Source of the DNA: Acutalibacteraceae bacterium
Lineage (GTDB): Bacteria; Bacillota; Clostridia; Oscillospirales; Acutalibacteraceae
Reading direction: 5' to 3'
NCBI GenBank assembly: GCA_045598065.1
Contig: JAZLLJ010000030.1
Location: 7,832-71,831 of the forward strand
Length of the DNA stretch: 64,000 nucleotides
Positions within the stretch are counted from its first letter, which is position 1. Every line of letters begins with the position of its first letter. Below are positions 40,521 through 61,094 of the stretch, in pieces. The translations under genes and the position numbers were made by a program. The notes below the pieces were generated by a model, which ran no database searches, had not been told where the DNA came from, and was given only the letters and a program-made list of their open reading frames with translations.

Positions 40521-40557
40521 AAAAACCGCCCGTATTCTTGCGAATACGGGCGGTTTT
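40521..40557. terminator. bidirectional terminator between the convergent epimerase gene and the T4SS-like operon
   Basis: AAAAACCGCCCGTATTC-ttgc-GAATACGGGCGGTTTT. Confidence 0.85.
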
Positions 40558-40561
40558 CATT

Positions 40562-41332
40562 TTATTCTTCGGTCTCGTCAATTTCCGGCGTTTCCTCGTC
40601 AGGTTCTTCATCAAGAGCGGCTTGCAGTTTCTCCAATTTAGCTTTCATCTTCTGTTTTTTCCGCTCTTTCTTTTCGGCGGCGGCGCGTTCTTTCATTTCC
40701 GCCTTGTACGCTTTTTTCTCCTCTTTGGTCATTGTTTTCTCGATGACTTTTTTGTCCTCGTCGGTCGCATCCTTCTTGGCTTTCTTAATCTTCACCACAT
40801 CCAGGCGTTCCAACTCGTAAGGAATATTCCGACTCCACTTCCAAAACGCGTGAGCAGCGTTAAGGCGCGCAATCAGCGTACGAGCGGTCACTACCGTCAT
40901 CTCCACGGCCTCCTCTTCCTTGTCGAGAGAAAGAAGAAGTACCGAGGGGTTATAGAGGACCGGGGCGTAAAAGGTGGCAATTTGGTCGGGATCAGCATCC
41001 AGAAGCACACGCCGTCCGAGGTTTTGCAAAGATTTGTCGCCCTCTTCAAGCAATTTGCGCGCCCGTTGTTTTTTTCGGGTATCGCCGGTTTTACGGTTCT
41101 TTTTCTTTTCCTCTTTAGAGAGCACGTCCGACGACGACTCCTCTTCCGAGAAACGATAGCGGCGCTTGATCGCCGTAACACCAAATACACGAGCAAAACC
41201 CGTCCCGTTAAACGTGCCAAGCATCCGCATTTTCACCGATTCCCGAGCGGCCACGATGCAAGTATCGTAGTATGCGATATATCCCAACAGAATGCGGCGT
41301 ATTTCTTTTTTTACATCATTGATGTCGCTCAT
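40562..41332 (-). CDS. hypothetical cytoplasmic protein (256 aa) with a Lys/Glu-rich tail; last gene of the T4SS-like operon
   Basis: Long ORF with no TM segment. Contains basic and acidic low-complexity stretches (KKKNRKTGDTRKKQRARK; C-terminal KERAAAEKKERKKQKMKAKLEKL...EEPDEETPEIDETEE). No family recognised. Confidence 0.6.
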   Translation of the reverse strand: MSDINDVKKEIRRILLGYIAYYDTCIVAARESVKMRMLGTFNGTGFARVFGVTAIKRRYRFSEEESSSDVLSKEEKKKNRKTGDTRKKQRARKLLEEGDKSLQNLGRRVLLDADPDQIATFYAPVLYNPSVLLLSLDKEEEAVEMTVVTARTLIARLNAAHAFWKWSRNIPYELERLDVVKIKKAKKDATDEDKKVIEKTMTKEEKKAYKAEMKERAAAEKKERKKQKMKAKLEKLQAALDEEPDEETPEIDETEE

Positions 41333-41371
41333 AACGGCTCTCTCTTTTCTAAAAGTTCGCGAATATACTGA

Positions 41372-42142
41372 TTATTCCGCTTCGGTCGAAACCGGCGCAA
41401 GAGTTACCCACTCGTGCGAGAGGATTGAAAATCCGCCATCGTCGTTGTGCTGCAATTCCACTTTCAAGGTATCGTTGTTTTTCGCGTCGCGAATATAAAT
41501 CAGACAGTTTTCCGTGCCGGAGCAAGCGAACGAATATCCGACAAGCGACACGCCGTTACCGACTTCTTCGCCCATATCCATTTTCTCATACTTCACTTCA
41601 CCGCGCATCGGGAAAAATTCCCATTCGGCATCTTCTTTTCCGGCAACGGTGACCGCAAAGCTACCGTCTGCCAGTTGTTTTACGGTATAGGAATCACTCT
41701 CAATGTCATCAGCCATTTCTTTGTGGCTCAAAGCCTTGTACGTGACCTTTTGCCCTTGCGCCGTTGCCGTCATGAAAATCTGACTGCGAACATCCGTGCG
41801 AGAGAAAACGTCTCGCAAAGAGAACGTCAAGCAAGACTCGCCGGACATCAACGGCTTAATAAGGAACGTAGTTCCTTCTTCATTGGTGCTTTCAAGAACG
41901 GTGGACAGCGTGTTTCGCTCGTAGTCCGTGACAACCCACTCGTATCCTTCGAGAGAGCCTTTGATAAACAGTTTAATGTTGTCACCGTCTTGCGTCACGG
42001 TACACGGATATTTCGCGCTGCTGTCGTCCGCGTTCAGCGGAACAATCGCAGGCTTTTTGGGCGTGCAAAGCCACAGAATCAAGAGCGCCACCGCCAAAGC
42101 GACCACGATACCCAAAACAATCCATATCACTTTCTTTTTCAC
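41372..42142 (-). CDS. hypothetical N-terminally membrane-anchored extracytoplasmic protein (256 aa)
   Basis: One N-terminal TM helix (IWIVLGIVVALAVALLILWLC) followed by a ~225-aa beta-rich domain. No family recognised. Confidence 0.6.
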   Translation of the reverse strand: MKKKVIWIVLGIVVALAVALLILWLCTPKKPAIVPLNADDSSAKYPCTVTQDGDNIKLFIKGSLEGYEWVVTDYERNTLSTVLESTNEEGTTFLIKPLMSGESCLTFSLRDVFSRTDVRSQIFMTATAQGQKVTYKALSHKEMADDIESDSYTVKQLADGSFAVTVAGKEDAEWEFFPMRGEVKYEKMDMGEEVGNGVSLVGYSFACSGTENCLIYIRDAKNNDTLKVELQHNDDGGFSILSHEWVTLAPVSTEAE

Positions 42143-42172
42143 AACGATGTCCCCCTTGATACGTGGTAAAAC

Positions 42173-45100
42173 TTATTCGGTCACAGAAGTTGTTGTCGGT
42201 TCGGTAACTTCCGTTTCCGAACCGGAGGCGACGGTTTCCGTCGTCTCCGGCGAAGTCTCTTCGGTAGGTGTCGGCTCGGTAGATGCTGTCGTCGGCTCAG
42301 TGGTCGTGAGCATCGTGTTTTCCGCCTCAACGCTGATTTCCACTACCGCCTGAACAGCCGGGTTTTCATCCGACGTGATAATCACACGGTACACTTCGAT
42401 TCCACCGGTCGTGTTCCGCGGCGAATCAAACACAATCTGACTGCCGTTTTTCGTGAAGCAATCCACTTCGGAAACCGCGTCGCCGACCGCTTTGACCGCC
42501 GACACCGTGTACCCGTATCCGGCAAGCGAACCGTTCACTGTCGGTTTAATCGTCACCTGATCGCCGGAGTACACGAGCACCGCGCTCTTCCCTTGGGAAT
42601 CGCTGTTGATGGTGCTGGATTTTTCAACTTTGCTGTTATAGAAACTGGTCTTCGTCGAAATCGAAATGTTGCACAGGTTAATCGTGCGCGGATCACCCTC
42701 ACGGATAATCGGATCGGACAATTTACGCTCAGCCAACTGCTCTTTGCCGTCAACAATCGTCCGCACTTTGAGATTTTCTATACCCCACGCCGCCTGGCTG
42801 TACGGCTCCTTGGAGTGCGGTTCAATAACGACATACCGAATCTCACTGCAATTCTTCATCAGGAAACTAAACGTTGCCGTTTTGCCGGCTTCCAGTTTCC
42901 CGTCGGTCATATAGGCACGCACGTCGTCGATGGCCATCGTACGGGTTTGGCGACCATCCTGGCTGACATAACCAATCGTCATGCGAATGGGATCCGCCGT
43001 AGACGAACTTACAACATCTGTGCTTTCCGCGGTAGTAACGGTAATTTCCACGGGCGCAACGTTGACATCCGTCACACTCATCAGTACCGGAGTAGCTGTA
43101 AGTTTGGCCGCTGCCGCGAAGTTATACCATTTGGTCGGCGTGCTGGTATCACCCTGTATCGGATAGCAACCCACCGTCATTCCGTCCACCGAAGCATTGA
43201 CGCTGCCGGTGCCGGCGACGGTAATGCCGGTAATCTCTTTCAGGTTGGGGATAGCAAAAGGAACCTGAACGAGCAATCCCGGTTTCACAGCCGCATACTT
43301 CATAATTTCCTGTCCATCAGCATCCTTTGTCTTCACATCCGTCAGGAAAACGTACGGCGAACTGTATTCTTTCCCCAGAGGATCGCCTTTCAGCGTATAG
43401 CGAATCGAAATAGCCACATCGGATGCCTCGGCAACCAAGCCGGAGGCAACCGTGTCCTTACCAAACAGCATCGTAACGATCTGCTGTTCAGTGGATATGG
43501 AATGCTTGCTCGAGGGGAATTGCTCACCGGTACTGCTGAATACGTTGATGGGATTTCCAGTACCCGGCGTATGATAATCCATATAGTAATATCCGATAAC
43601 CACACCGGAACGTACGTGCTGAACAATCATATGGTCCACCAAAGCGCTGACCTTATCCAAACTGGGCACGACGAGGTTCGTCTTGTTCAGCGTGGTAAAG
43701 CCGTACGCCGTGATGCCGGTAGCATAGAACACTCTGTCGGTAGTATCGTAGTTAAGACCGTTGACCGTCATTCGCATCGGGCCGTCGTGATCGGAAGATT
43801 CATACGTCAACTCCGCTCTGAGGTCATAGACCTTGGTGGTCTGCCCGTTCGATACTTTCACCGGTGACTGAGCGTTTTCCGCCATATAGACGTACACGTT
43901 CAGTGAATCGTTTCTATTTTCCGGTTTACGGGTGATCGTAGAGGACCAACCCTCTTCCGATTCCTTCGTTACAATAGTGTTGTCCTCAAAAGTGATTACC
44001 TGGTTACCCTCATCTTGGTTCGGAGGAAGAATGACGGCATAAGTATTTTGATCGCTCTTGGTAATCAATTTCATCTGATTATCGGTGTGACGTTGGAACT
44101 CATCCACGCAGTTTAGACGAAGCGTGCCGTTCTCCAACAACTGCCACACTTTCACTTCCTTGATGTTCCACGTTGTACCGTACACGTCGCGTGCAAAGAG
44201 TTCTATTTTCTTAATAGAAGTCACATCCGTCAGACTGATAAAGAAACGGTCGGTATGTCCCTCGCGGAACATATATTCGCGGTTGCTGACAGCGCAGACC
44301 ACTTCTCCGCCGCTCTCGCCGGTCATTTTGCCGAGTGACTTACCTTCACGTGTCTCGTAGCGAGGTTGCTGACCGTTGTACTCGTACATCTTCTGGACAA
44401 CGTCAAAGTTCTTCTTTTGTTCTCCGTCTTTATTGATGTAGGTAACCGTCGCCGTCACTGTTCCTTCAAACTGACTATCGAAAGCCTCACCCGAATACGT
44501 ATCCTCGGCGGCCACATTATACGGATCCGTCGTAATGGAGACCATCAAGTTGGAACTGACGCCCTTTCCGGAGACCGTAAACTCACGCACCAAGTCGCTG
44601 GCGTTACGGCCTTGAAGACCGGACGCCGTGTTTTTCGGCGCATCGTCGCGGTAGTCAATCTTAATCCATCCGACGTTGTCGAAGAACCACGAAGTCGAAG
44701 CCACCGCCGAACTTTTCTTCGTCACGGTGATACTCTTGATATTCAATTTATCGAAAATGTCGGTGCTCTCGTTGGTATCCGAATCGTCCGGCAAAATGCG
44801 AATCGCCGTCAAGTCGCCGAGGTCTTGGTTCGTATAAATGGTAAACGATTCTTTCTCACCGGCACGGAAACCGTCTGCCGTCAACTGTTGGTTTGCGAGA
44901 ACGTACCCACTGTTGCCGCCTTGGAACGTCAACTGGAAGTAGAACAAGTTTTTCGAGCCGGTGTCACCGTCTTTTTCGTTTGCGGAATCGTTGCCTGCCA
45001 CCTGGACTTCCACCTCATAGGTTCCACGAACACGGTTGAAGCCCAGATCCTGCATCGACTCCTTGTAGGTCATAGAATGCTTCAGTTTGTTCCAGTCGAG

Positions 45101-47131
45101 ATCGGTTTCGACGTCGCTTTCTTTGTTTTCGGAACTTTCTTCAAATTCCCCTTTACGGTTGGCGGTCTCTTCATCGCCACCGTTCACATAAATCGGCTCT
45201 TCACCGGGTTTCTCCTTGTCAGAGGCGCCATAAGAGCACATAATCGTCGATTTATCGAAATCACGGGTAATAATCCAGTTGGAAGTGACTTTGCCGGTAC
45301 CGGCGCCCTCTCCCCGTTCATGAAGTTCCAAAACGCGATGGCCGATCCATTCGGGATCGTAGATGATAAGGCTCTTCATCTGCCAGTCGTCGGCGTAGGT
45401 GGAATTCATAGATATATCAAACGACTTGAATTGAGAGACATCGTCCACATCCATAAAGAACATAATCTCTCCACCGGGACGCAGCCCATAATAGCGATGG
45501 TAATCCGGAAATGCCGAACCGTCATCGTAGAATACGTTATCATAGTACGGCCAATATCCATAGAAATCCTCGGGTGCGGTAATCAATGAGTAGGTTTTGG
45601 TGGTTTTGGTAACACCGGAGGTGGATTGATAGGTGAATTTAATTTTCACCTCAGACGTCGTGCCTGCATCTTTGGGCGTATCGGTCTTGATAACGACCAC
45701 GTAGCGACCTTTATAATCGGGCGACAAATCAGCACCGGTGTCATTTTCTTTCACCGAAAGCGTTTTCGGCGAGTCATAAGACAGCGTAATACCGCTGTTT
45801 CCTTCCGCCATCACATACGCAATCGGAATACCGTTGATAGTGTAGAACAAATCCGTCTCACCGTCACCGGTATATTCCAGTTGATCAACATTCTTATACA
45901 GTTTGAAGGACGAAATGGACAGCGTATCTTTTTCGAGTTTATCTTTCGTCCAGTTCTCTAAATCCGGTGAGAGTCTCCCTGAAACGGTGTTTTTAATCCC
46001 CGCGAGTTCAGGCACATCCAAGGTGTAGGACAGTTTGCAGGAAGTCATTTTCTTGAACGCAGGAAGCTTACCGGAGAACACTAACTGCTCTCCCTGCTGC
46101 AACACTTTCCACGGGCACAACGCTTTGTCGTATTCAGCATACCCGTTTTCCGTCGACCACGCAGCCGCGCTGGAAAGCACCGGGAGTTTTGCTGAATACG
46201 AAACACCGCCGACATCTTCATAGGTGATATCCAGCATCAGCACCTCTTTGATAAGTATCATATCCCGGAACGGACACTCGATCATCATTTTTTCAATACC
46301 GGCTTTATAAAAATCCGCAATATCGATTTCAAACAAGTATTCGTCGCTGTCATGGGTGGAATACGCCTCGTTGTTACCGCTGACGAACTGGTAATCGCCG
46401 CCGGAGGGGGCAAAGCAAAACACCTTGTCATTGCCGGACAGGTTTAAATCCACCGTCTTGTTGAAAGAGTAAATCGCTTTGCCGGAGAAATCAATGAACA
46501 GACTGGTAGAATAATATCCAATCATCTGCAGGCCGTAAAGCGTTTCCACTTTATAAATGCTGATACCTTTACAGGTCCACCCCTTCTTGTAGGTAGAAGA
46601 GTAATGTTCGTGAACGTCCACCGAGGTAATGCTGTCCACCGTGTAGTGCGGCGTAAACAGAATCTCATCGGTACTGTTGGGCATCAGCATATTGCTCGAC
46701 ATTAGATTATCAATGTCAACGGTATAGCCGGTATAGTTTTCGACGTTGCTCAGGCGTTTTTCCAAACCGCTGACAGACATCGCTAATTCATAGGTACTTT
46801 CTTTCGGATGGGAATTCGGCGACACAAATTCCACACGGGACACGCCACCCTTGTCCTTATAATGCACTGCAAAATAACTGACGTCCGCGCCGCCGTTGAC
46901 ACCGGTGGAAACGCGAAGGAGATAGGTGTTTTCACAGGCTTTCCCTTCCTGTGAAGCAACACTAACACCGCCGGATGACTTACTTATCCCTTCGTTTGCC
47001 GCAGATGCCGGCAAAGCAGGTGCAATATAAGGCATGACAAAGCAGAGGATCAGCAAAAGCGCCGTAAAACGCCATACTGTCCTCTTTGCTTTTTGCAAAG
47101 AATGCCGTGTTGTCGAGTGTTCCATAGCCAT
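42173..47131 (-). CDS. giant secreted protein (1652 aa) built from repeated beta-sandwich (PLAT/LH2-like) modules with a Thr/Glu/Pro-rich C-terminus
   Basis: Signal-like N-terminus (FTALLLILCFVMPYIAPALPASAANEG). At least 6-8 modules follow the pattern Y.v.v.T....G(T/A)....v...f....G......f.....d...i..i.i......W....i.v. No LPXTG motif and no C-terminal TM. Confidence 0.75.
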   Translation of the reverse strand: MAMEHSTTRHSLQKAKRTVWRFTALLLILCFVMPYIAPALPASAANEGISKSSGGVSVASQEGKACENTYLLRVSTGVNGGADVSYFAVHYKDKGGVSRVEFVSPNSHPKESTYELAMSVSGLEKRLSNVENYTGYTVDIDNLMSSNMLMPNSTDEILFTPHYTVDSITSVDVHEHYSSTYKKGWTCKGISIYKVETLYGLQMIGYYSTSLFIDFSGKAIYSFNKTVDLNLSGNDKVFCFAPSGGDYQFVSGNNEAYSTHDSDEYLFEIDIADFYKAGIEKMMIECPFRDMILIKEVLMLDITYEDVGGVSYSAKLPVLSSAAAWSTENGYAEYDKALCPWKVLQQGEQLVFSGKLPAFKKMTSCKLSYTLDVPELAGIKNTVSGRLSPDLENWTKDKLEKDTLSISSFKLYKNVDQLEYTGDGETDLFYTINGIPIAYVMAEGNSGITLSYDSPKTLSVKENDTGADLSPDYKGRYVVVIKTDTPKDAGTTSEVKIKFTYQSTSGVTKTTKTYSLITAPEDFYGYWPYYDNVFYDDGSAFPDYHRYYGLRPGGEIMFFMDVDDVSQFKSFDISMNSTYADDWQMKSLIIYDPEWIGHRVLELHERGEGAGTGKVTSNWIITRDFDKSTIMCSYGASDKEKPGEEPIYVNGGDEETANRKGEFEESSENKESDVETDLDWNKLKHSMTYKESMQDLGFNRVRGTYEVEVQVAGNDSANEKDGDTGSKNLFYFQLTFQGGNSGYVLANQQLTADGFRAGEKESFTIYTNQDLGDLTAIRILPDDSDTNESTDIFDKLNIKSITVTKKSSAVASTSWFFDNVGWIKIDYRDDAPKNTASGLQGRNASDLVREFTVSGKGVSSNLMVSITTDPYNVAAEDTYSGEAFDSQFEGTVTATVTYINKDGEQKKNFDVVQKMYEYNGQQPRYETREGKSLGKMTGESGGEVVCAVSNREYMFREGHTDRFFISLTDVTSIKKIELFARDVYGTTWNIKEVKVWQLLENGTLRLNCVDEFQRHTDNQMKLITKSDQNTYAVILPPNQDEGNQVITFEDNTIVTKESEEGWSSTITRKPENRNDSLNVYVYMAENAQSPVKVSNGQTTKVYDLRAELTYESSDHDGPMRMTVNGLNYDTTDRVFYATGITAYGFTTLNKTNLVVPSLDKVSALVDHMIVQHVRSGVVIGYYYMDYHTPGTGNPINVFSSTGEQFPSSKHSISTEQQIVTMLFGKDTVASGLVAEASDVAISIRYTLKGDPLGKEYSSPYVFLTDVKTKDADGQEIMKYAAVKPGLLVQVPFAIPNLKEITGITVAGTGSVNASVDGMTVGCYPIQGDTSTPTKWYNFAAAAKLTATPVLMSVTDVNVAPVEITVTTAESTDVVSSSTADPIRMTIGYVSQDGRQTRTMAIDDVRAYMTDGKLEAGKTATFSFLMKNCSEIRYVVIEPHSKEPYSQAAWGIENLKVRTIVDGKEQLAERKLSDPIIREGDPRTINLCNISISTKTSFYNSKVEKSSTINSDSQGKSAVLVYSGDQVTIKPTVNGSLAGYGYTVSAVKAVGDAVSEVDCFTKNGSQIVFDSPRNTTGGIEVYRVIITSDENPAVQAVVEISVEAENTMLTTTEPTTASTEPTPTEETSPETTETVASGSETEVTEPTTTSVTE

Positions 47132-47226
47132 TCCTCCAAGTTTCCGCGTTTTGCAAGGTTTCTCTAACCAAAAAAGGGAAAAACGCGGTGAAAGGTTACA
47201 TTATTAAAGAGAATATTTTCCGATAC

Positions 47227-47532
47227 TTATCCGTTATCAATATGCAAAAGCCCTGCAAATCCGGTCATTTCAAATACTTCCATCACCATACGGTTAACAC
47301 GGCGAAGGACCAGTTCTCCCTCTCGCTTACGCATTTTGATGTGGAGATTTTTAAGAATGCGCAGACCGGCGGAAGAAACGTACTCCATTCCTTCCATATT
47401 CAAAATCACACGGGAAAACCGTTCGGAAACGTTTTCAAAAATCGTTTCCATTTCCTTTGACGTTACCGAATCCAGTCGGCCCATCAGAATGAGTTCTCCT
47501 TCATCCCCTCGGTTAATCAGTTTTACTTTCAT
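47227..47532 (-). CDS. STAS-domain protein (anti-sigma-factor antagonist, SpoIIAA/RsbV-like)
   Basis: About 101 aa from MKVKLINRGDEGELILMGRLD. Conserved phospho-serine context MEYVSSAGLRIL. The ORF extends to 47571, but the internal Met gives the normal STAS length. Confidence 0.8.
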   Translation of the reverse strand: MKVKLINRGDEGELILMGRLDSVTSKEMETIFENVSERFSRVILNMEGMEYVSSAGLRILKNLHIKMRKREGELVLRRVNRMVMEVFEMTGFAGLLHIDNG

Positions 47533-47571
47533 AGCAGGAAAAGAGAACCTCCTTTCTGTCCTTTGTTTCAC

Positions 47572-51465: not shown

Positions 51466-51509
51466 AGGGGTTCACCTCCCAAAAGGTTCGGGGTTTATAA
51501 CGGGGTTTA

Positions 51510-51545
51510 CCCGACCGCGCAAAACACTTTTTTTGCGCGGTCGGG
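51510..51545 (-). promoter_or_regulatory. strong intra-operon stem-loop between the VirB6-like and VirB4-like genes
   Basis: CCCGACCGCGCAAAA-n6-TTTTGCGCGGTCGGG (15-bp stem). No T-run on the minus strand, so a partial terminator or mRNA-stability element is more likely than a full stop. Confidence 0.5.
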
Positions 51546-51556
51546 GATGCTAAAAT

Positions 51557-54280
51557 TTATTTTTTATTTTGGTTTCCCGGAAGTGGCTTCGGATTACTCA
51601 GCGGATCGTAAATTCTCTTCGGCGGAGACTTTTTCTTCGGAACATCCACCGCCGCATTGCTCGCTTGAACGTTGCCGTTGTTCGCCGGGACGGCGTTGTT
51701 GTTCGCCGGGACGGCGTTGTTGTTCGCCGGGACGGCGTTGTTGTTCGCCGGAACAGCGTTGTTGTTCGCCGGAACAGCGTTGTTGTTCGCCGGAACAGCG
51801 TTGCCGCCGCCTTGGTTTCCACCACCGACATTACCGCCTCGGTTTCCACCGCCGACATTACCGCCTTGGTTTCCACCACCGACATTACCGCCTTGGTTTC
51901 CACCACCGACATTACCACCTTGGTTTCCACCGCCGGCTACGTTGCCGCCGTTTCCGCCTTGGTTTCCGCCCTTCGGCTGCGCAGGCTTACTCGGTGCCGG
52001 AGCAGGTTTCGATTGGTCCGCACCCACGGCATCCTTACCGTAATACACACCGCCGAGGCCTTTTCCGTCATGGCCTTTTTTGTAGGCATCGTTCTCGGCT
52101 TCGGTATACTTTTTGCCGTTTTCGGCGCGGCCGACGTACTGTTCACCGCGTTCGTTTTTGCCAAGACCTTTCAGCATGGACTGGCGTTCCGACTCGGTAA
52201 ACGCATTGCCCATATCGTCTTTACCAACGTAGGCCTCACCGTCGGCATTAGTGCCAAGACCATAGTCTTGCTGACTCTGCGGAAGCGGTTGTTCGCCTTC
52301 GACATTCGTACCGTTTTCATTGTTCAAAGAGGTAGTGCTTTCCGTCTGGTTCTCGTTTCCGTTGCCCTGCTGATTACTCGGAAGCACGCCGTTTGTATTG
52401 TTGTCTTCGGTATTATTAGCCGTGTTCGTACCGTTTTGGTTAGTGTTATCCGTGGTGGTGTTGTTGTTATTATTATCCTTTTGCTGGTTGTCGGGCAAGC
52501 CATTAGAGTTGTTGTTATTGTTATTGTTGTTGTTTTCGGCTTTCTTCGCAACAGCACCAGCAGCGGCCGCACCGGCAGCGCCGGCAACACCGGCGCCGAC
52601 TTTTTGCGCCAATTTCGCCGCTTTTTCTTTCTTCGCAGCTTCTTTCTTATCCTTTTCGCGATCTTTTTTCGCCTGTTTCTTCTCGCCGAGCGGATCATCC
52701 GGATCCTCGCCGCCGAAGTGCTTACCGAAGTGACGGCCGAACTGACGGTCAGCCAAATCGTTGGTATTCGATGCCTGGATAGCGGCAAAGCCCGCGTTGT
52801 TCGCCAAGATACCGGTGAGGATGCCGCTGAAACGGCTGACACCTTCCATCATACCGGTGATAAGTAAACCTTTGGCAACCACGTTTAACGTGGCGGAAGG
52901 AAGCAGAATCAAATTCGAATCCATCACCATAGGAACGAACAAAATGACAAGACGCATGGGAATAATGTTGCCGAACACGCCGAACATCTGGATAATCATA
53001 GAAGTCGTCCACTCCTTAAAACGACGACCGTCATCCAAAGACATAGTCGCCGCAAGAGGAGGCGCAATAACATAAAGTCCGACAATGTTTACAAGACGTG
53101 TGCAGCAGTTGAGGATACAACGGTACAAGTTTTTCAGTACCCAATATCCCACAAACCAAATCATAAAGTAGGAAATACCGCCAAGCTGATAACGGAAAGC
53201 GGATTTCACGTCGCTAAACGAATAAATGCTCTTTTCGCCGGTATAGAACGCACCGCGCAATCCATCAGAAACACTGGGATTCTTGTTAAAGTTATCATTC
53301 TTCGCCGCATTCATCGTTCCCATAAGGAACACCACGCGGTCAAGGGATGCGCTGTCGGCAGAAGTATATTCGTTTTTGTAACTCTTCAGTGCACGGAAAC
53401 TGGCATCCGTTCGGAGAATATCCATAATATCGGTAAGTGCCTGCGAAGTCTCCGGATAATAGAGATCCATGCTCAACTCGTTTTCGGGGTTGGCCGCATA
53501 TACCAACCGTTCGAGCTCACTTTGCCAGGTATGTATCGGTTTTTGCTCTTCGTCCCGGGTGGGATACACCAAATCGAATATCCCTTTGTCCTGCAAATAG
53601 AGCAGTTTAGGACGAATTTCGTTATAACAAGTATTCAAATTGTAACGATGGTTATACGTGGCGTTCATAGAATACTCATCAATGGTCGTGAGAATATCGA
53701 ACATCACGGCACGATCCTCGTCCGTAAATTCAATCTCTTGCTTTTGAGTAAGCGCTTTATTTTGGTCAAACACGTAACTGACACGCTCGATAAGGACGTT
53801 TGTAAAGGTCATCGTCACCGACATAACAGCGGTCAACATAACCATCACAAACAAACTTTTCAGCATACCGCCGATAATCTGTCCCAGCGACTGCTGCTGT
53901 TTGTCGTTGATATCGAACATCTTTCGCACCACGGCGATAATGGTGAACACAACGGCAAGGACGGCGCCTATCATTACCATTCCCCAATAGATGCCGTTGA
54001 TGGCCTCATTTTCAAAGAACAGGTTGGTCAGATAGGTAAAATCCTCTTTCATCTGCACCTTGCTGATGCCTGCAAACACCGCAAACACCGCGTATGCCGC
54101 TTTGATGATATCGCACCAGGCCCAGGTCAAGTAATAGCAAGCAATTCCAAGGCCTTCTTTGATCGCGTCAAGGATGGCATTACCGATGGCATCCGCGATA
54201 CTGTCAAATACATCGCCGATAACATCAACGATGGAATCAAACACATCGAAAATGCCCATTATTCCCAAGGATCGGAACAT
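51557..54280 (-). CDS. VirB6-like polytopic membrane protein (907 aa) with a ~400-aa Asn/Gly/Gln-rich low-complexity C-terminal region
   Basis: About 8 hydrophobic helices in the first ~500 aa with a large loop, and a position between VirD4-like and VirB4-like genes. The tail has a poly-Asn run, (GGNQGGNVG)n and (NNAVPAN)6. The VirB6 call rests on architecture only. Confidence 0.6.
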   Translation of the reverse strand: MFRSLGIMGIFDVFDSIVDVIGDVFDSIADAIGNAILDAIKEGLGIACYYLTWAWCDIIKAAYAVFAVFAGISKVQMKEDFTYLTNLFFENEAINGIYWGMVMIGAVLAVVFTIIAVVRKMFDINDKQQQSLGQIIGGMLKSLFVMVMLTAVMSVTMTFTNVLIERVSYVFDQNKALTQKQEIEFTDEDRAVMFDILTTIDEYSMNATYNHRYNLNTCYNEIRPKLLYLQDKGIFDLVYPTRDEEQKPIHTWQSELERLVYAANPENELSMDLYYPETSQALTDIMDILRTDASFRALKSYKNEYTSADSASLDRVVFLMGTMNAAKNDNFNKNPSVSDGLRGAFYTGEKSIYSFSDVKSAFRYQLGGISYFMIWFVGYWVLKNLYRCILNCCTRLVNIVGLYVIAPPLAATMSLDDGRRFKEWTTSMIIQMFGVFGNIIPMRLVILFVPMVMDSNLILLPSATLNVVAKGLLITGMMEGVSRFSGILTGILANNAGFAAIQASNTNDLADRQFGRHFGKHFGGEDPDDPLGEKKQAKKDREKDKKEAAKKEKAAKLAQKVGAGVAGAAGAAAAGAVAKKAENNNNNNNNNSNGLPDNQQKDNNNNNTTTDNTNQNGTNTANNTEDNNTNGVLPSNQQGNGNENQTESTTSLNNENGTNVEGEQPLPQSQQDYGLGTNADGEAYVGKDDMGNAFTESERQSMLKGLGKNERGEQYVGRAENGKKYTEAENDAYKKGHDGKGLGGVYYGKDAVGADQSKPAPAPSKPAQPKGGNQGGNGGNVAGGGNQGGNVGGGNQGGNVGGGNQGGNVGGGNRGGNVGGGNQGGGNAVPANNNAVPANNNAVPANNNAVPANNNAVPANNNAVPANNGNVQASNAAVDVPKKKSPPKRIYDPLSNPKPLPGNQNKK
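51668..51803. repeat. 21-bp in-frame tandem repeat, 6 copies (3+3 subtypes)
   Basis: GTTGTTCGCCGGGACGGCGTT x3 then GTTGTTCGCCGGAACAGCGTT x3, encoding NNAVPAN x6 on the minus strand. Confidence 0.9.
51811..51970. repeat. 27-bp in-frame tandem repeat, about 5 copies
   Basis: CTTGGTTTCCACCACCGACATTACCGC units with few substitutions, encoding GGNQGGNVG repeats. Confidence 0.9.
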
Positions 54281-54318
54281 ATCTTAACGCTCTCCCTTCT
54301 TTGTGGATTTGTGCGAAA

Positions 54319-55275
54319 TCAACGCACACGCAATTTCTTTCTGGAAACAACAAGATACGCAATGAGTCCTCCGAGCGTCGCCAACAACAGCAGGGCAAAC
54401 GCGACAGCGGACAGGTTAAAATAAATCAAAATGCGGAAATTATAGGTAGTTTCATTGCCTGCGGCATCCGTGAGAATCAGGTGGTAGACACCGCTTTGTG
54501 TCAATTTGTCTTTCTTTTGAATTTCCCGATTGCCGAGCAGGATTTTAATGGAAACATCCGGCTCCAAATCGGAAATATCCACCGGGCCTTTGGCCACGTT
54601 GTTTTTCACCGCTTCCAATTTCAATGTCGGCGGCGTGTGATCCACTTCAACGCTAAGGGTGTACGGATGGTCAATCACATCACAGCGATAACTGATTGTG
54701 TATTTTCCCTCCGCAGACATATCCGCCACGTTAAAACTAAACGGAGCCTCCGCTCCATCGAGACGGGCATCTGTAATAGTAAACCCCTCAGGAACCATAA
54801 AAGTTTCAAGAAGTCCGGTTTTTTTTGCTAAAATTGTGAAGCGGAGGATTTGTTCGGCGCGAGTACCAACACCCGTAGCCAACAGAATGTATTCTCCGGT
54901 TTCTTCGATGTGGTCATAATCCACATCCTTCACCGTTTCTCCGTCACGGGTAAGTGTCGGAGTGACGCCGGCGGGAATTTTTATTTTCACCGGTTCCGTC
55001 GTGTACATTCCATCCGCCACAGAAGCATAAAAACTACCTTCCGGCGTAACGGTTTCTTTGGTATAGCAAAACATTCCCTCGTTTTTATCGTACCAGGTCG
55101 TTTCGTTGACACAAACAAGCGTGTAGCCGGTTTCCTCGTCCAGAGGTTGGTCGGTATCGGGGTTGATTTGTTCGATGGTGGTGGAAACCGCCGCTGCATT
55201 GAATCCAAGCGACATACACAGCACAACCGTCAAAACTATCGCAATAAGCTTTTTCACGTTCTCCACCCCTCTCAC
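54319..55275 (-). CDS. hypothetical surface protein (318 aa): signal peptide, beta-rich ectodomain, C-terminal TM anchor
   Basis: N-terminal LIAIVLTVVLCMSLGFNAAAV, C-terminal LSAVAFALLLLATLGGLIAYLVVSRKKLRVR. Its start overlaps the stop of the upstream VirD4-like gene by 4 nt. Confidence 0.65.
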   Translation of the reverse strand: MRGVENVKKLIAIVLTVVLCMSLGFNAAAVSTTIEQINPDTDQPLDEETGYTLVCVNETTWYDKNEGMFCYTKETVTPEGSFYASVADGMYTTEPVKIKIPAGVTPTLTRDGETVKDVDYDHIEETGEYILLATGVGTRAEQILRFTILAKKTGLLETFMVPEGFTITDARLDGAEAPFSFNVADMSAEGKYTISYRCDVIDHPYTLSVEVDHTPPTLKLEAVKNNVAKGPVDISDLEPDVSIKILLGNREIQKKDKLTQSGVYHLILTDAAGNETTYNFRILIYFNLSAVAFALLLLATLGGLIAYLVVSRKKLRVR

Positions 55276-57269
55276 TGCTTCAGCACGGTAGCGTTTCGTG
55301 CCTTGATATCATAAAACGCTTCATCCGCTCGGAAAATGTGAGAACGAATCTCGTCCAAATCCATCCGACCGAACTGATAGAAGTCGCATTTGTATGACGG
55401 GGTGTATTTGGTCATCAGCGGATAGTTACCGAACGTCACGATAATGGCGTTACCGGTCGAGGTTTTATTGTTAAGTTTTTGCAAATCCGACGGATAAATA
55501 AGCGGACGAGTCTGCAACTGGTTACTGACGTTCATATCGCCGTCTTTCGAACCGAGACCGGCGGAAGTCGAAGTGGTACGCACCGTTTTGTTACCGCACA
55601 ACTCCGAGAACTCTTTACAAGTGCCGATATCGTTCGAACCGATAAACATTTTCAGCGCACAGTTGGATTTCACAACGTCCGCCACGCCCTCGCCGTAAAT
55701 ATTGTTGAGCTGGGCGTAACTCTGCACCACCATATTGAACCAAATCTTACGGCTACGACCGACGGTAATCATCTTGTCGAATTTCTCGATACGCGGCATA
55801 TTACCGAACTCATCGAGGATGAAATACACGTTGCGCGGCAAAGACAAATCCTCGCGCGCGGACGCGACTTTAATTAAACCCTTATAGAGACTCAGGATAA
55901 ACAACGACGCCAATCCGTGTCGAGTATCCTTTTCGTCCGGGATTTTAAGGAACAACGCCGTGGGACGTTCGGCGAATTGTTCGGCGCGGATATCCGTGGC
56001 CGAAGTCAAGCCGCAAATGCCGCGGTCGTTGAAAATATTCAATTTATCGAAGGTAATAGACATATAGCTGGAAAGCGTTTGATCCGCCGCCGCCAACACC
56101 TGGCGAGACAGCGACACCGCTTGGGACAGTTTGCTTCTGCCCTCAAAATAGCGTTTTAAATGGATATAGTTTTTCTCACTGTTAGTGAGAATCTTGTTAA
56201 GATTAAAGAAATTGAATTTCTCCTTGGTCATGCCGAGGCGTTTATCTTGGCTGTCTTCGAGCATGGCAATGCAGGTCGCCAAAATGATAGAACGGGCACC
56301 TTTTTCCCACAAGGGATCTTTTTCGTTGGTAATGGGGCAAATACCCGAAATGAGGTCGTTTAAGTCCTCGTACATCTCATCGTAAATGCGCTGTTTCGCC
56401 ACAGAAACGTCGTCCTGACAGTGGCGAAGGTCCGTATACGCTTTGCCGTCCCACTCGCACCACACCTCACCGGCAGGCTCGTCATCCATCCGCTTAAGGG
56501 ACGGATAATCATCAAGGCTGTCGCGGTGAGCAAGGATATCCTTGCCCATCTCGGCGTACTGCTGATACATATCCCAAACGGATTCCAACGGATTCCAACG
56601 GGAGGAAGAATAGGTGTCGCGCAAATCGAGCACCATCACGTCATAACCGCGGGATTTCAGGAATTTGGAGTGCATATCGAACAACTCGCCCTTCGGGTCG
56701 GTCATCACCATGCTGGAACCGCAGTTGGTCGCGCCGATTAACTGAATCATGGGGTTAATAAACGTGGTGGTTTTACCGGAACCGGTAGAACCGATAACAA
56801 GCGCATGCGCACCGGACATCATATTGATGTGCATTTGCCCTTTTTTGTCCACAATCGCACGCAACGGCGCGCCGTCTTTCTTTGCATTCGGCAGCATTTC
56901 ATAGGTCAACGGGGTAAACAACTTATCCCGTTCTTTTTCGGTCATATAGCGGCTGTTCTCCAACACGGATTCCACGTCGCCGTTTTTACCTTTTCCCATA
57001 ATGTTGTGACCGCGGCCGAAGTTGCTGCCCATAAAGACCAAAAGCAAAACCAGCGCCACAATCACAAAGCCGGTCAGCCACGTACCGATGGACACCAAAT
57101 ATTTCCAGTAGAGCACGAACGATTCGCCATGAATGATACCTCGTGCGTTGGCAATAATATTACGCAACAGAAAGCCCAAAAGGCCTGCTCCGAACAATGC
57201 AATCGCGCCATACGCAATCAACTTGTCCAGAGGCAGGCTTTTAAACCAATCTTTGAGTTTGTTCATCAT
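55272..57269 (-). CDS. VirD4/TraG-type type IV coupling protein
   Basis: 665 aa. Two N-terminal TM helices. Walker A IGSTGSGKTT is encoded at 56766-56795. The FILDEFGNMPRIEKF...GRSRKIWFNMVVQSYAQLNNIYG block is typical of T4CPs. Confidence 0.85.
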   Translation of the reverse strand: MMNKLKDWFKSLPLDKLIAYGAIALFGAGLLGFLLRNIIANARGIIHGESFVLYWKYLVSIGTWLTGFVIVALVLLLVFMGSNFGRGHNIMGKGKNGDVESVLENSRYMTEKERDKLFTPLTYEMLPNAKKDGAPLRAIVDKKGQMHINMMSGAHALVIGSTGSGKTTTFINPMIQLIGATNCGSSMVMTDPKGELFDMHSKFLKSRGYDVMVLDLRDTYSSSRWNPLESVWDMYQQYAEMGKDILAHRDSLDDYPSLKRMDDEPAGEVWCEWDGKAYTDLRHCQDDVSVAKQRIYDEMYEDLNDLISGICPITNEKDPLWEKGARSIILATCIAMLEDSQDKRLGMTKEKFNFFNLNKILTNSEKNYIHLKRYFEGRSKLSQAVSLSRQVLAAADQTLSSYMSITFDKLNIFNDRGICGLTSATDIRAEQFAERPTALFLKIPDEKDTRHGLASLFILSLYKGLIKVASAREDLSLPRNVYFILDEFGNMPRIEKFDKMITVGRSRKIWFNMVVQSYAQLNNIYGEGVADVVKSNCALKMFIGSNDIGTCKEFSELCGNKTVRTTSTSAGLGSKDGDMNVSNQLQTRPLIYPSDLQKLNNKTSTGNAIIVTFGNYPLMTKYTPSYKCDFYQFGRMDLDEIRSHIFRADEAFYDIKARNATVLKQ

Positions 57270-57293
57270 AAAGATGCCCCGCTTTCTGTCAAA

Positions 57294-57325
57294 CGCTTAG
57301 GCGAGAGTTTCCCCTCGCCTAAGCG
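57294..57325 (-). promoter_or_regulatory. intra-operon stem-loop between the 672-aa gene and the coupling-protein gene
   Basis: CGCTTAGGCGAG-n8-CTCGCCTAAGCG (12-bp perfect stem), followed on the minus strand by only TTT. Confidence 0.5.
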
Positions 57326-57362
57326 GAATTTTCAAATGTATTTTATCCGGTCGATTCTCCTG

Positions 57363-59381: not shown

Positions 59382-59447
59382 ACTACATCATCCTTCCGCT
59401 TGCCTGCCGTTATTTCACGGATTCGGCAAACAATTTACTCTCAAAAG

Positions 59448-59852
59448 TTACAGTTTGCTGGCGTCAATGACGTCGCCGCCGCTGACGTTGTCGTTCACCC
59501 ACTCGGCGAGGAGAGGCGTGACCAGGTTCAGGACAAGGATCAAGACGAAGATCAGCACGAAGCCGATAACCGCGTTTTGCAGGTGAGATTTCGCTTTCTC
59601 ACGATCCTGCGGCTCTTCCGCTTTGGCGAATTTCACACCGAGGATGATGCAGTACAGAGCGCCCACGGCAACGACGAGGACGAGGGCCGCCGTCATCAAC
59701 GTGCGGAGAAGGTTAACGATCGGGTCGGTAACTGCTTCCAGGCCCTCACCTTCCGCCAGAACGGCGAAGCCCATGAGCATCGCGGTGCCCATAATGGCAG
59801 CGAGACGCGCGGTCAGTTGTTTTGCGGTGAATTTTTTGCTGAGTTTTTTCAT
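59448..59852 (-). CDS. VirB2/TrbC-like pilin-type small membrane protein (134 aa)
   Basis: Signal-like N-terminus, then two hydrophobic helices separated by a short charged loop (KFAKAEEPQDREKAKSH), the canonical T4SS pilin topology. RBS GGAGGAAC. Confidence 0.55.
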   Translation of the reverse strand: MKKLSKKFTAKQLTARLAAIMGTAMLMGFAVLAEGEGLEAVTDPIVNLLRTLMTAALVLVVAVGALYCIILGVKFAKAEEPQDREKAKSHLQNAVIGFVLIFVLILVLNLVTPLLAEWVNDNVSGGDVIDASKL

Positions 59853-59920
59853 TGTTTGTTCCTCCTAAGAAGTTTTTTTATTTGATTTGCATTGCTGCAA
59901 AAGAAACCAAGTGAATTCGT

Positions 59921-60367
59921 TTACATCATCGGTGCCTGTTTTTCCGGCACGTTCAGTTCCGGCTCATTTACCGTCACCGACACAAGATTGACGTCTTTCA
60001 GTTCGTTTTCGGCGATGCGTGTAAGCTCGTCGGTGAATTTGCCGTTTTCCAAATCGTGGCCGATTTCCTCAGGCGAGCGGTCAACCAACGCCTCAAACGC
60101 CGGCAACTCTTTCATCTGAGTGGCAAGCGCTTCCACGTCCGTTCCGGCAGGTAGACGGTTATTCTGTGCCAAACGGCCGACGGCGGCAGCAGCGGTCAAA
60201 TCGCGCATGTCGCTTTTCGACGCGGTATTTCCGAGCGATTTCAGCTCTTTTTCCGCCTCACGGCCCTTTTCAACGGCCTTGACGGTCGTCACCATGCTCT
60301 CGACCAGCTCTTTCGGAGCGCCGGCCGGTTCGCCGATGGCTTTCGATACTTTCTCTTTCGGTGTCAT
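59921..60367 (-). CDS. hypothetical soluble helical protein (148 aa), tightly coupled to the ECF sigma gene
   Basis: Starts 4 nt after the sigma stop codon. No TM segment and no HxxxCxxC zinc anti-sigma motif. Confidence 0.6.
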   Translation of the reverse strand: MTPKEKVSKAIGEPAGAPKELVESMVTTVKAVEKGREAEKELKSLGNTASKSDMRDLTAAAAVGRLAQNNRLPAGTDVEALATQMKELPAFEALVDRSPEEIGHDLENGKFTDELTRIAENELKDVNLVSVTVNEPELNVPEKQAPMM

Positions 60368-60371
60368 TCCA

Positions 60372-60833
60372 TCATCCCTCTAACTGCGTTTTGAGCGCTT
60401 CTCTTGCCCGCATTAGCGTGACCTTTATCGTGTTTTCCGGTTTGCCGAGAATCTCGGCAATTTCCTTAATCTTCAGGTCTTGTAGGTAGAACAGCGTAAT
60501 GACTTCCCGTTGGGCATCGGGAAGTTTTTGGATAGCGCGCCGCAAATCGAGAATTTCATCGTTTTCGGTGCGTTCCCCTTTGTCGTCGGTCAACCCTTCA
60601 TCCAACTCCACGTCGTACGTCCGGCCGGACAGCATATCTTTCGCGCAGTTGATGGTCACGCGAATGAGCCAGGCCTTGCGATGTTCCTCGCTTTCAAAGG
60701 AGCGTTCCTTCTTGAAATACGCGAGGAACGTCTCGGAGTAAACATCTTCCGCGTCAGCGGGGTTGCGAACATAGCGCATGGCAATTTTATACACCATGTC
60801 GGAATACGTGCGGACGATTTCTTCGCCGTTCAT
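60372..60833 (-). CDS. ECF-type (group IV) sigma-70 family sigma factor
   Basis: Region 2 (AEDVYSETFLAYFKK...KAWLIRVTINCAKD) and region 4 HTH (REVITLFYLQDLKIKEIAEILGKPENTIKVTLMRAREAL). The ORF opens at 60902; the start was chosen at MNGEEIV. Confidence 0.85.
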   Translation of the reverse strand: MNGEEIVRTYSDMVYKIAMRYVRNPADAEDVYSETFLAYFKKERSFESEEHRKAWLIRVTINCAKDMLSGRTYDVELDEGLTDDKGERTENDEILDLRRAIQKLPDAQREVITLFYLQDLKIKEIAEILGKPENTIKVTLMRAREALKTQLEG

Positions 60834-61094
60834 AAACAACACCCGCTCCTTTCGGGAAAGGTTACAACCCATCCAAATTTTTTGCGCAGCTTTTGGGACC
60901 ACAGTATCATATATACGCGCACATGATAGCCCAATTTCCCTTATTTTCGCATATTATATAAGAAAAGTCAACCCCTCTTTACAAGAAATAGTATAAATTT
61001 CTTCCATAATTCACCGTTTTTCGACCGACACCGGGGTTTTCGGAATATTTTTTCTCCTCTTTGCATAGCGTAAGACCAAAAAGGAGGCTTTTTT

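Follow-up and report, generated by a model that had tools for sequence, protein, structure and literature searches.

The DNA considered here, called the window, is a stretch of 64,000 nucleotides (nt) from an Acutalibacteraceae bacterium (assembly GCA_045598065.1, contig JAZLLJ010000030.1, positions 7,832 to 71,831), and the subject is an operon of about 20 kb on its minus strand that encodes a type IV secretion system (T4SS). Twelve co-directional open reading frames (ORFs), g1 to g12, span positions 40562-60902 of the window (Table 1), with intergenic distances ranging from a 4-nt overlap up to 95 nt, and no convincing terminator was found in the intergenic regions inside the operon. It is flanked at one end by potABCD and an aldose 1-epimerase gene, and at the other by yabP, yabQ, divIC and a gene with an S1 domain. 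The likely true starts of four genes were revised, to 60833 for the sigma factor (an ATG giving ~153 residues), 55257 for g6, 47532 for the STAS protein and 47125 for g10. On the evidence collected below, the operon has the appearance of a cell-contact machine that belongs to the host, and not that of a conjugative element.

Table 1. Positions of the operon genes and of other features in the window (aa, amino acids; TM, transmembrane; Ig, immunoglobulin; ECF, extracytoplasmic function; T4CP, type IV coupling protein)
Feature	Position	Strand	Basis or description
g1, ECF-type sigma factor, first gene of the operon	60372-60902	minus	Pfam Sigma70_r2, Sigma70_r4_2, Sigma70_ECF
g2, acidic cytoplasmic protein, 148 aa	59921-60367	minus	no hydrophobic segment; family-less
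g3, VirB2/TrbC-like T4SS pilin	59448-59852	minus	PF18895 and NCBIfam Mbov_0395 pilin-like
g4, secreted protein, 672 aa	57363-59381	minus	signal peptide; beta-helix-like G/N-rich repeat core
g5, VirD4-type coupling protein (T4CP)	55272-57269	minus	PF02534, TraG-D_C, TrwB_AAD_bind; two N-terminal TM segments
g6, membrane-anchored stalk, 318 aa	54319-55275	minus	signal peptide, three tandem Ig-like domains, C-terminal TM helix
g7, VirB6-like polytopic membrane protein	51557-54280	minus	NCBIfam MMCAP2_0566 and hydropathy; long N/G/Q-rich C-terminal tail
g8, extended VirB4 ATPase, 1297 aa	47572-51465	minus	Pfam P-loop_TraG, DUF87, AAA_10
g9, RsbV/SpoIIAA-type STAS protein	47227-47571	minus	PF01740, E = 8e-14; ~100 aa from the likely start
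g10, giant secreted protein, 1652 aa, mostly beta	42173-47131	minus	central PLAT/LH2 domain, residues ~700-830
g11, N-terminally anchored extracellular beta-rich protein	41372-42142	minus	TM segment, residues 5-23
g12, cytoplasmic protein	40562-41332	minus	alignment; conserved core of ~150 aa and lysine-rich disordered tail
Bidirectional intrinsic terminator	40521-40558	both	17-bp stem, 8 GC pairs, T-runs on each strand; ends the operon and the convergent epimerase gene
Sigma-70-like promoter match upstream of g1	60943-60971	minus	consensus scan: TTGACT, 17 nt, TG-GAAAAT; putative function
Unlinked membrane SpoIIE/PP2C phosphatase	9122-10603	minus	PF07228, E = 3e-44
Pfam-less gene, 288 aa	8091-8957	minus	low-GC patch, near the SpoIIE/PP2C gene
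Pfam-less gene, 383 aa	12821-13972	minus	low-GC patch, near the SpoIIE/PP2C gene
Pfam-less gene, 695 aa, K/E-rich N-terminus	14030-16117	minus	low-GC patch, near the SpoIIE/PP2C gene

Secretion machinery encoded by the operon

Profile searches recovered four T4SS families (VirB4, VirD4, the VirB6-like protein and the pilin), all scoring above or close to the curated cut-offs. A scan of one genome per GTDB species gave matches in at least 195 species, and the 80 loci retrieved from it are the basis of the locus counts in this text. The pilin g3 scores 45.2 bits against PF18895 (T4SS_pilin, cut-off 26.6) and 60.7 bits against the NCBIfam Mbov_0395 pilin-like family NF045849 (cut-off 40), as opposed to 21.6 bits against TrbC (PF04956), which is under the cut-off of 27.9; it has a long signal peptide followed by two hydrophobic helices, and its homologues occur in 54 loci. 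The T4CP g5, with the Walker A motif IGSTGSGKTT, matches PF02534 at E = 8e-51 and 173.8 bits (cut-off 20.1) and NCBIfam conju_CD1115 at 291.2 bits (cut-off 250), and is 62-92% identical among loci. For the VirB6-like g7, which has ~7 hydrophobic segments, the scores are 101.3 bits with NCBIfam MMCAP2_0566 (cut-off 90) and 67.5 bits with ICE_Mbov_0396_TM (cut-off 70).

The VirB4 ATPase g8 matches P-loop_TraG at E = 7e-22 and NCBIfam VirB4_plasma (Mbov_0397) at E = 1.7e-164, with 548.9 bits that fall just under the cut-off of 590. Walker A reads GKSGSGKS and Walker B reads VVVIDEAH, both without variation among 12 homologues. In total 620 VirB4 homologues were detected with 53-87% identity, all of an unusual length of ~1200-1450 residues and most of them seen on a single contig. 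The protein opens with a hydrophobic hairpin and a K/E-rich linker; the VirB4 core (residues ~190-975) comes next, and an acidic/proline-rich linker then joins it to a conserved C-terminal domain of ~50 residues. This last domain (47572-47720, consensus GFDIMALL...SPIEMME.YDE.V..ITLEEL..YN) is specific to this VirB4 family, its coding sequence immediately precedes the STAS gene, and it may serve for docking. As a separate observation, the C-terminal tail of the VirB6-like protein has AVPANNN repeats that derive from tandem DNA repeats of 21-nt units at 51676-51779, and short tandem repeats at 47747-47854 encode EKPxEKPEEKP in the C-terminal linker of VirB4; the length of both repeats could vary between strains.

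The first-pass annotation, made from the sequence alone, had described twelve tightly spaced minus-strand genes, and all of these ORFs were recovered at the coordinates it gave, as were the core-gene flanks on both sides. Its calls of an ECF sigma factor, a VirB2-like pilin, VirD4, a VirB6-like protein and a STAS protein are borne out by the Pfam and NCBIfam profiles, and it had placed the Walker A motifs of T4CP and VirB4 and the Walker B motif of VirB4 correctly. Of the VirB3-VirB4 fusion that it proposed, the VirB4 part stands, whereas the VirB3 part reduces to the N-terminal hydrophobic hairpin (residues ~22-61, with one hydropathy peak and a second segment read from the sequence), which is VirB3-like by position only, as no match to the VirB3, PrgI or TraL families was found for it at E <= 0.01 in Pfam or NCBIfam. 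The designation of g2 as a sigma partner is not supported, since the protein carries no anti-sigma domain and its Agathobaculum homologue is encoded after the pilin gene and not beside a sigma factor. The bidirectional terminator reported at the downstream end was confirmed together with its 17-bp stem.

At the upstream end, the TTGACTT and GCGAAAAT blocks that precede g1 are kept in the two sister loci L084 and L085. Another strong sigma-70 match, at 57292-57265, was set aside as it overlaps the start codon of the T4CP gene. The ECF-type motif TGTAAC-N15-18-CGT occurs at chance-level frequency, with zero sites in the intergenic regions of the operon, and therefore autoregulation by the sigma factor is not claimed. 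A 16-nt palindrome, TTTGCAGCAATGCAAA, lies at ~59885-59900 on the minus strand, ~35 nt upstream of the start codon of the pilin gene; the block holding it is near-identical in L084 and L085 despite diverged adjoining coding sequence, and the palindrome could be an operator or an RNA element.

Surface proteins, regulators and functions missing from the operon

The gene of the stalk protein g6 always lies between those of T4CP and the VirB6-like protein. Its AlphaFold2 model has a predicted local distance difference test score (pLDDT) of 91.3, and the Foldseek matches of this model are the Ig tandems of titin, NCAM, SGBP-B, SiiE and SraP. With three Ig domains and a C-terminal anchor, g6 is accordingly not an enzyme, nor is it an NTF2 protein like VirB8. 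The protein is present in 54-64 loci, and its family comprises 200 clusters at 50% identity (E <= 1e-30). We also observed that its middle Ig-like domain (residues ~160-282) is repeated 15-21 times in giant proteins of 2300-3400 residues (P0186, P0197, P0254 and P0272), a recurrence that points to a shared building block of surface proteins.

PLAT domains are membrane- and lipid-binding modules. For the giant protein g10, the local Foldseek matches are the PLAT domains of lipoxygenases and lipases (probability ~1.0), PLAT was found in 19 of its 22 orthologues, and internal PLAT-like repeats are weakly supported by hhalign. The AlphaFold2 model of the whole protein, built on a 7-sequence alignment, is poor (pLDDT 49.5), and its structural matches to complement C5, ferlin and PrgB were not trusted. 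The window copy of g4 belongs to no family and shows a weak match to tapirin, while single orthologues match Fil_haemagg and Cthe_2159. The anchored protein g11, found in 37 loci, gave a weak amoebiasin-1 match (E = 0.002) in the PDB profile search and possibly has chagasin-like Ig folds; three sequences in the pooled orthologues of g4, g6, g11, g12 and g2 match Inhibitor_I42, the parent protein not being distinguished within the pool.

The two cytoplasmic proteins g12 and g2 have no relatives in Pfam, NCBIfam or the PDB profile search, and PDB profile searches with the alignments of g6, g12, g2 and g4 returned nothing useful. The former occurs in 30 loci and is a candidate substrate or nucleic-acid binder, and the latter has homologues in 17 loci, all of the Oscillospirales type. 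Several Lachnospiraceae-type loci (L025, L035, L058, L081 and L082) end with highly charged, low-complexity proteins of 500-750 residues without a Pfam family (clusters F40, F54 and F60), which are possible cargo or effector candidates; no homologues of these proteins were found in the window.

On the side of regulation, Oscillospirales-type loci begin with the ECF sigma factor, usually accompanied by g2, and in Lachnospiraceae-type loci a LytS-type histidine kinase and a response regulator take the 5' position in place of the sigma factor. The STAS gene directly follows virB4, and is so placed in 56 loci. Its Y.SSAGLR motif, at least 90% conserved in 52 orthologues, holds the serine that is phosphorylated in anti-sigma antagonists. 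An RsbW-like HATPase_c_2 kinase (PF13581) is added in 12 related loci and a membrane SpoIIE/PP2C phosphatase in 7. The window holds an unlinked phosphatase of this kind (Table 1) that is 45-59% identical to the PP2C phosphatases at the ends of the T4SS modules in the 7 other loci, and on this homology it may tentatively be regarded as a trans-acting partner of the STAS protein. Such a partner switch would gate either the machine or its sigma factor.

Genes for mobility and for wall hydrolysis were sought in the 12 operon proteins with Pfam and NCBIfam, in 94 orthologues of g2, g4, g6, g11 and g12, in the flanking ORFs of related loci and in the tested ORFs of the window. Neither the 12 proteins, nor the 94 orthologues, nor the PDB profile searches of the same five proteins gave a relaxase, a tyrosine or serine recombinase, a DDE transposase, or a replication or partition protein; the 94 orthologues match only Ig-like, beta-sandwich and beta-helix families. 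The 99 flanking ORFs belong most often to His_kinase (11), HATPase_c (10) and SpoIIE (7), with housekeeping families (PolA, PlsX, TsaD, LigA) coming next, and the 25 families listed out of 58 in these flanks include no mobility or hydrolase family. For relaxases in particular (MOB, Rep_trans, TcpM-like), there was no Pfam or NCBIfam match in the operon, the orthologues, the listed flank families or the tested window ORFs, and neither the module nor its neighbours yielded an integrase, recombinase, DDE transposase or ParA. No VirB1-like wall hydrolase (CHAP, NlpC/P60, SLT, lysozyme) was found in the 12 proteins, the 94 orthologues or the 25 listed flank families. Profiles of VirB8, PrgL and TraM gave no match in the operon, and the structural check, made on g6 as the only conserved bitopic protein, returned the Ig fold.

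Distribution, position and divergence of the module

Across the 80 loci the core order is pilin, g4, T4CP, g6, VirB6, VirB4, STAS, giant PLAT protein, g11 and g12, and the module is conserved family-wide, with VirB4 in 74 loci, VirB6 in 61, the giant protein in 58, STAS in 56, T4CP in 55 and g6 in 54. Two variants of this order were seen. In the first (L052, L059, L060, L063, L068, L069 and L074) the T4CP gene lies behind g11 and STAS is absent, and in the second (L042/L043, from Lachnospiraceae C10) the order is circularly permuted and reads VirB4, STAS, sigma, pilin ... VirB6. The record titles of the carriers name Acutalibacteraceae, Oscillospiraceae, Ruminococcaceae, Agathobaculum, Lachnospiraceae and Anaerovoracaceae, mostly gut and rumen Clostridia, and include the cultured Pseudobutyrivibrio sp. 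YE44, Eubacterium ruminantium FB3002, Lachnospiraceae NC2004, AC2029 and C10, and Ruminococcaceae FB2012. Module contigs were also seen in bins titled Bacteroidaceae, Paludibacteraceae, Desulfovibrio piger and Bifidobacteriaceae (L016, L018, L020, L021, L023, L028, L029, L054 and L065); these are probably mis-binned contigs and not cross-phylum occurrences. We found no description of this clostridial T4SS family in the full-text literature, subscription journals being outside the coverage.

The position of the module is stable among close relatives. Four related Acutalibacteraceae-type bins match the window at this site: the S1-divIC-yabQ-yabP junction is retained in L084 and L085, the epimerase/potD junction in L004 and L005. 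In Agathobaculum the module is found between response-regulator genes and trmD-rimM-rpsP-ffh. A metagenome search with the epimerase gave more distant relatives that keep potABCD-epimerase without the T4SS or yabP downstream, and is uninformative on insertion or excision. A link to sporulation, considered for the yabP-yabQ-divIC neighbourhood, was rejected because this adjacency is confined to the closest relatives of the window and other carriers place the module elsewhere.

On comparing sister species, the machinery was found to be strongly conserved, with identities of 91-92% for T4CP, 86-87% for VirB4, 86-88% for the sigma factor (the orthologues of which have 153-162 residues) and 80-83% for STAS. 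The values for the flanking genes are 55-63% for yabP, 48-55% for yabQ, 75-89% for potD and 94-95% for the epimerase, and those for the exposed parts are 33-35% for g4, the fastest-evolving component, 42-44% for g11 and 56-60% for g6 and g10. By these identities the motor is held by purifying selection no less strongly than most adjoining core genes are, and the surface evolves fast. Such a combination of a conserved motor and a fast-evolving surface is not the pattern expected of a decaying remnant of an integrative and conjugative element (ICE).

The same values bear on whether the locus is only an apparatus for pili and adhesion, in which a VirB2-type pilus and giant surface proteins would serve aggregation, biofilm formation or attachment to a substrate and nothing would be translocated. 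Five of the 12 genes do encode either the pilin or beta-rich proteins that are secreted or anchored, the exposed parts diverge quickly in the manner of adhesins, and g4, besides its weak tapirin match, has the single orthologues that match Cthe_2159, a carbohydrate-binding family. But VirD4 is the most conserved component between sister species and is kept in 55 loci, and coupling proteins of this kind are not known to be required for pilus biogenesis. Also, g10, g4, g6 and g11 have ordinary signal peptides or anchors, and a T4SS is not needed for their export. We therefore consider this explanation improbable.

Still more doubtful is a Mollicutes-type ICE, whether active through an unrecognised relaxase and recombinase or a decaying remnant that no longer has these genes, and this alternative is disfavoured. 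The conjugation proteins of mycoplasma ICEs are similar to those of the module at the family level, unrecognised relaxases are plausible in this lineage (PMC6030558), and the VirB4 tree is not strictly congruent with the taxon labels, one bin (JAFWTG01) holding two paralogous modules (L044 and L059). Against this, the searches of the module and its neighbourhood gave no DDE transposase, integrase or ParA, and there is no terminal repeat; the longest direct repeat shared by the two operon borders has 10 nt, and no att-like repeat was found there. Related bins share the yabP or the epimerase/potD junction, every module gene tested is intact, and in conservation the ATPases equal or exceed most adjoining core genes. 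The module is absent from 72,556 plasmids, where the best VirB4 matches (Spiroplasma and Bacillus thuringiensis) are 28-30% identical, and no relative of it was found in 2.9 million viral contigs. Host-type signal-transduction genes are moreover built into it.

We take the operon to be domesticated because of its positional stability, its housekeeping flanks, its absence from plasmids, its integrated host-type regulators and its family-wide conservation. The first-pass annotation had likewise seen a repurposed T4SS rather than an ordinary ICE, and this is supported by the recurrence of the module in many clostridial lineages beside different housekeeping genes and with dedicated regulators. 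It had recognised no relaxase, recombinase or hydrolase, in agreement with the Pfam, NCBIfam and PDB profile searches of the proteins of unrecognised family and, for g6, with AlphaFold and Foldseek, and two of the checks it had suggested, a search for att-like repeats and a comparison of the yabP locus in related genomes, gave the absence of repeats and the conserved junctions described above.

Related systems and proposed function

The closest conjugative relatives by score are the T4SSs of Mollicutes ICEs and Spiroplasma plasmids (CDS5, CDS15, CDS16 and CDS17 of Mycoplasma ICEA/ICEB), which supply the best-scoring families for the pilin, the VirB6-like protein and VirB4. Both kinds of system are minimal, with VirD4, VirB4, VirB6 and small TM proteins and without VirB1 and VirB8 (PMC12857230, section 21). 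Of the three Mollicutes equivalogs, Mbov_0395 scores above its cut-off and Mbov_0397 and Mbov_0396 narrowly below theirs, and the module VirB4 is ~28% identical to that of a Spiroplasma plasmid; the best-matching Spiroplasma plasmid is typed 'non-mobilizable'. The Mollicutes elements are mobile and carry a DDE transposase (PMC6030558); they also have a ParA-like gene and the CDS14 lipoprotein, and their hosts are wall-less. The module, by contrast, has no mobility genes, a fixed site and a host with sporulation genes, and adds a sigma factor, STAS, the Ig-stalk and the giant PLAT protein. By these sequence scores, the module appears to be related to the Mollicutes ICE T4SS family without being a member of it.

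This relationship is what gives weight to the main rival explanation, a domesticated organelle for DNA exchange, in which the host-fixed machine would pass chromosomal DNA from cell to cell, by export or by import, with no dedicated relaxase or oriT. Mollicutes ICEs transfer DNA without an identified relaxase, which is merely postulated in the ICEA model (PMC6030558), and mycoplasma chromosomal transfer, in which chromosomal DNA is moved, is a precedent (PMC6030558; PMC12857230, section 21), as are the archaeal Ced/Ted systems, chromosomal derivatives of VirB2, VirB4 and VirB6 that import DNA relaxase-free (PMC9905601). The closest plasmid VirB4s come from Spiroplasma, T4CP retains TrwB_AAD_bind and TraG-D_C, and the lysine-rich tail of g12 is compatible with nucleic-acid binding. 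However, no nuclease, helicase, single-stranded DNA-binding protein, primase or partition gene is found in the module or its conserved neighbours, and the T4CP domains are common to protein-translocating coupling proteins and so do not discriminate. DNA exchange is thus in our view rather unlikely, though less so than the two explanations discussed above.

Ced/Ted resemble the module as chromosomal, 'domesticated' conjugation machinery with VirB2-, VirB4- and VirB6-like parts and no relaxase (PMC9905601), yet there is no meaningful sequence similarity between them, the weak NCBIfam matches to CedB (E = 6e-4) and CedD (E = 9e-8) being far under cut-off. Ced is induced by ultraviolet light and imports DNA. 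Another parallel is offered by the T4SSs of Patescibacteria (Candidate Phyla Radiation), which are monoderm, chromosomal, derived from the MPF-FATA class, equipped with VirB2-like pilins, usually relaxase-less and proposed to have a non-conjugative role (PMC12102498; PMC12857230, section 22). They differ in having multi-pilin arrays, no VirB3-VirB4 fusion and no adhesins detected, and in being essential for epibiotic growth; the module, in contrast, belongs to free-living Clostridia and combines a single pilin and a VirB4 that is extended and membrane-anchored with several proteins of adhesin-like type and with regulators of the partner-switching kind.

Among Gram-negative bacteria, the VirB/D4 system of Bartonella, the antibacterial T4SSs of Xanthomonas and Stenotrophomonas, and Cag are likewise chromosomal, relaxase-less and VirD4-dependent, with adhesive surface parts. 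They differ as diderm systems with a VirB7/9/10 core, VirB11 and known effectors, none of which is found in the module. For the regulators, a parallel comes from Bordetella, where type III secretion is controlled by the ECF sigma factor BtrS and by partner switching through BtrU/V/W. That secretion machine is similarly placed under an ECF sigma factor and a STAS/kinase/PP2C switch; it differs in being a type III system, and for the module the window holds no such kinase and has its phosphatase gene away from the operon.

A 'MOBless T4SS' is a recognised category, and the chromosomal ones have been argued to be mostly protein secretion systems (PMC3158045). Gram-positive T4SSs are stated to be without VirB2 pilins except in Patescibacteria (PMC12857230, section 7; PMC12102498, section 13). 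Nearly all known functions of Gram-positive T4SSs are conjugative, the only exceptions cited being the 89K island of S. suis and the Patescibacteria systems, and whether dedicated effector translocators have arisen among them is called 'a long-standing one' among the questions of the field (PMC12857230, section 22).

With these comparisons in hand, we interpret the operon, with a probability of roughly 55%, as a host-fixed, relaxase-less ('MOBless') and minimised Gram-positive T4SS that carries out signal-gated, contact-dependent translocation with protein as its substrate, and not as an ICE. A protein substrate is preferred by analogy with the relaxase-less VirD4 systems of Gram-negative bacteria, the candidates being g12, g2 or effectors encoded elsewhere. 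We infer assembly, gating and contact-dependent transfer along the following lines. The ECF sigma factor would turn the operon on, the LytS-type two-component system doing so from the same 5' place in other lineages. The VirB6-like g7 and the membrane-anchored VirB4 g8 would form the membrane translocon, to which the VirD4 protein g5 would recruit a cytoplasmic substrate, and the VirB2-like pilin g3 would provide a short conduit or pilus across the wall. The Ig-stalk g6, the beta-helix-like g4, the giant PLAT protein g10 and the anchored g11 may hold and probe the neighbouring cell. Activity would be gated post-translationally by the phosphorylation state of STAS, which the PP2C phosphatase and an RsbW-like kinase would set.

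Several points weigh against this interpretation. Neither a VirB1-type hydrolase nor a VirB8-like protein was found, though the host appears to be walled and spore-forming, and no gene could be assigned to a substrate, an effector or immunity. The absence of a relaxase is weak evidence by itself in this lineage, because the Mollicutes relatives also have no recognised relaxase and yet move DNA. An RsbW-like kinase was sought in the window without a match, and the phosphatase is linked to the STAS protein by homology only. The VirB4 tree follows the taxon labels only in part, and this, together with the bin holding two copies, makes some horizontal spread of the module likely. Also, nearly all of the evidence comes from metagenome bins.

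Even so graded, the family is a strong candidate for a dedicated Gram-positive effector translocator, being relaxase-less, positionally stable, under purifying selection, provided with its own regulators and carried by abundant Clostridia of the gut and rumen. A bolder form of the same proposal, which we put forward tentatively as possible rather than probable, is that it represents the first T4SS of walled Gram-positive bacteria to be both widespread and dedicated to a non-conjugative role, by which gut and rumen Clostridia would, on contact, deliver proteins into their neighbours under the control of the partner switch, the PLAT giant and the fast-evolving surface set giving target specificity. 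Since several carriers are cultured isolates, the family is experimentally reachable, and the question of what Gram-positive T4SSs do becomes testable in cultured strains. If the substrate is protein, the family would mean a new way in which members of the microbiome interact with one another or with the host; if it is DNA, the archaeal Ced system would have its counterpart in bacteria, and genes could flow among commensals by a relaxase-free route. Further questions raised are how a minimal T4SS crosses a thick wall without VirB1 and VirB8, and what role the STAS switch plays beside VirB4.

As to the remainder of the window, the GC content of the operon (0.46-0.52) is slightly under the 0.50-0.56 of much of the window, without a sharp boundary. 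Low-GC patches (0.45-0.47) between 8091 and 16117 hold the three minus-strand genes that close Table 1. The other ORFs tested are housekeeping genes, namely those for TilS, DnaB, RNase J, valyl-tRNA synthetase (ValRS), phosphoglycerate mutase, Rnf, ApbE and a type III glutamine synthetase (GlnA).

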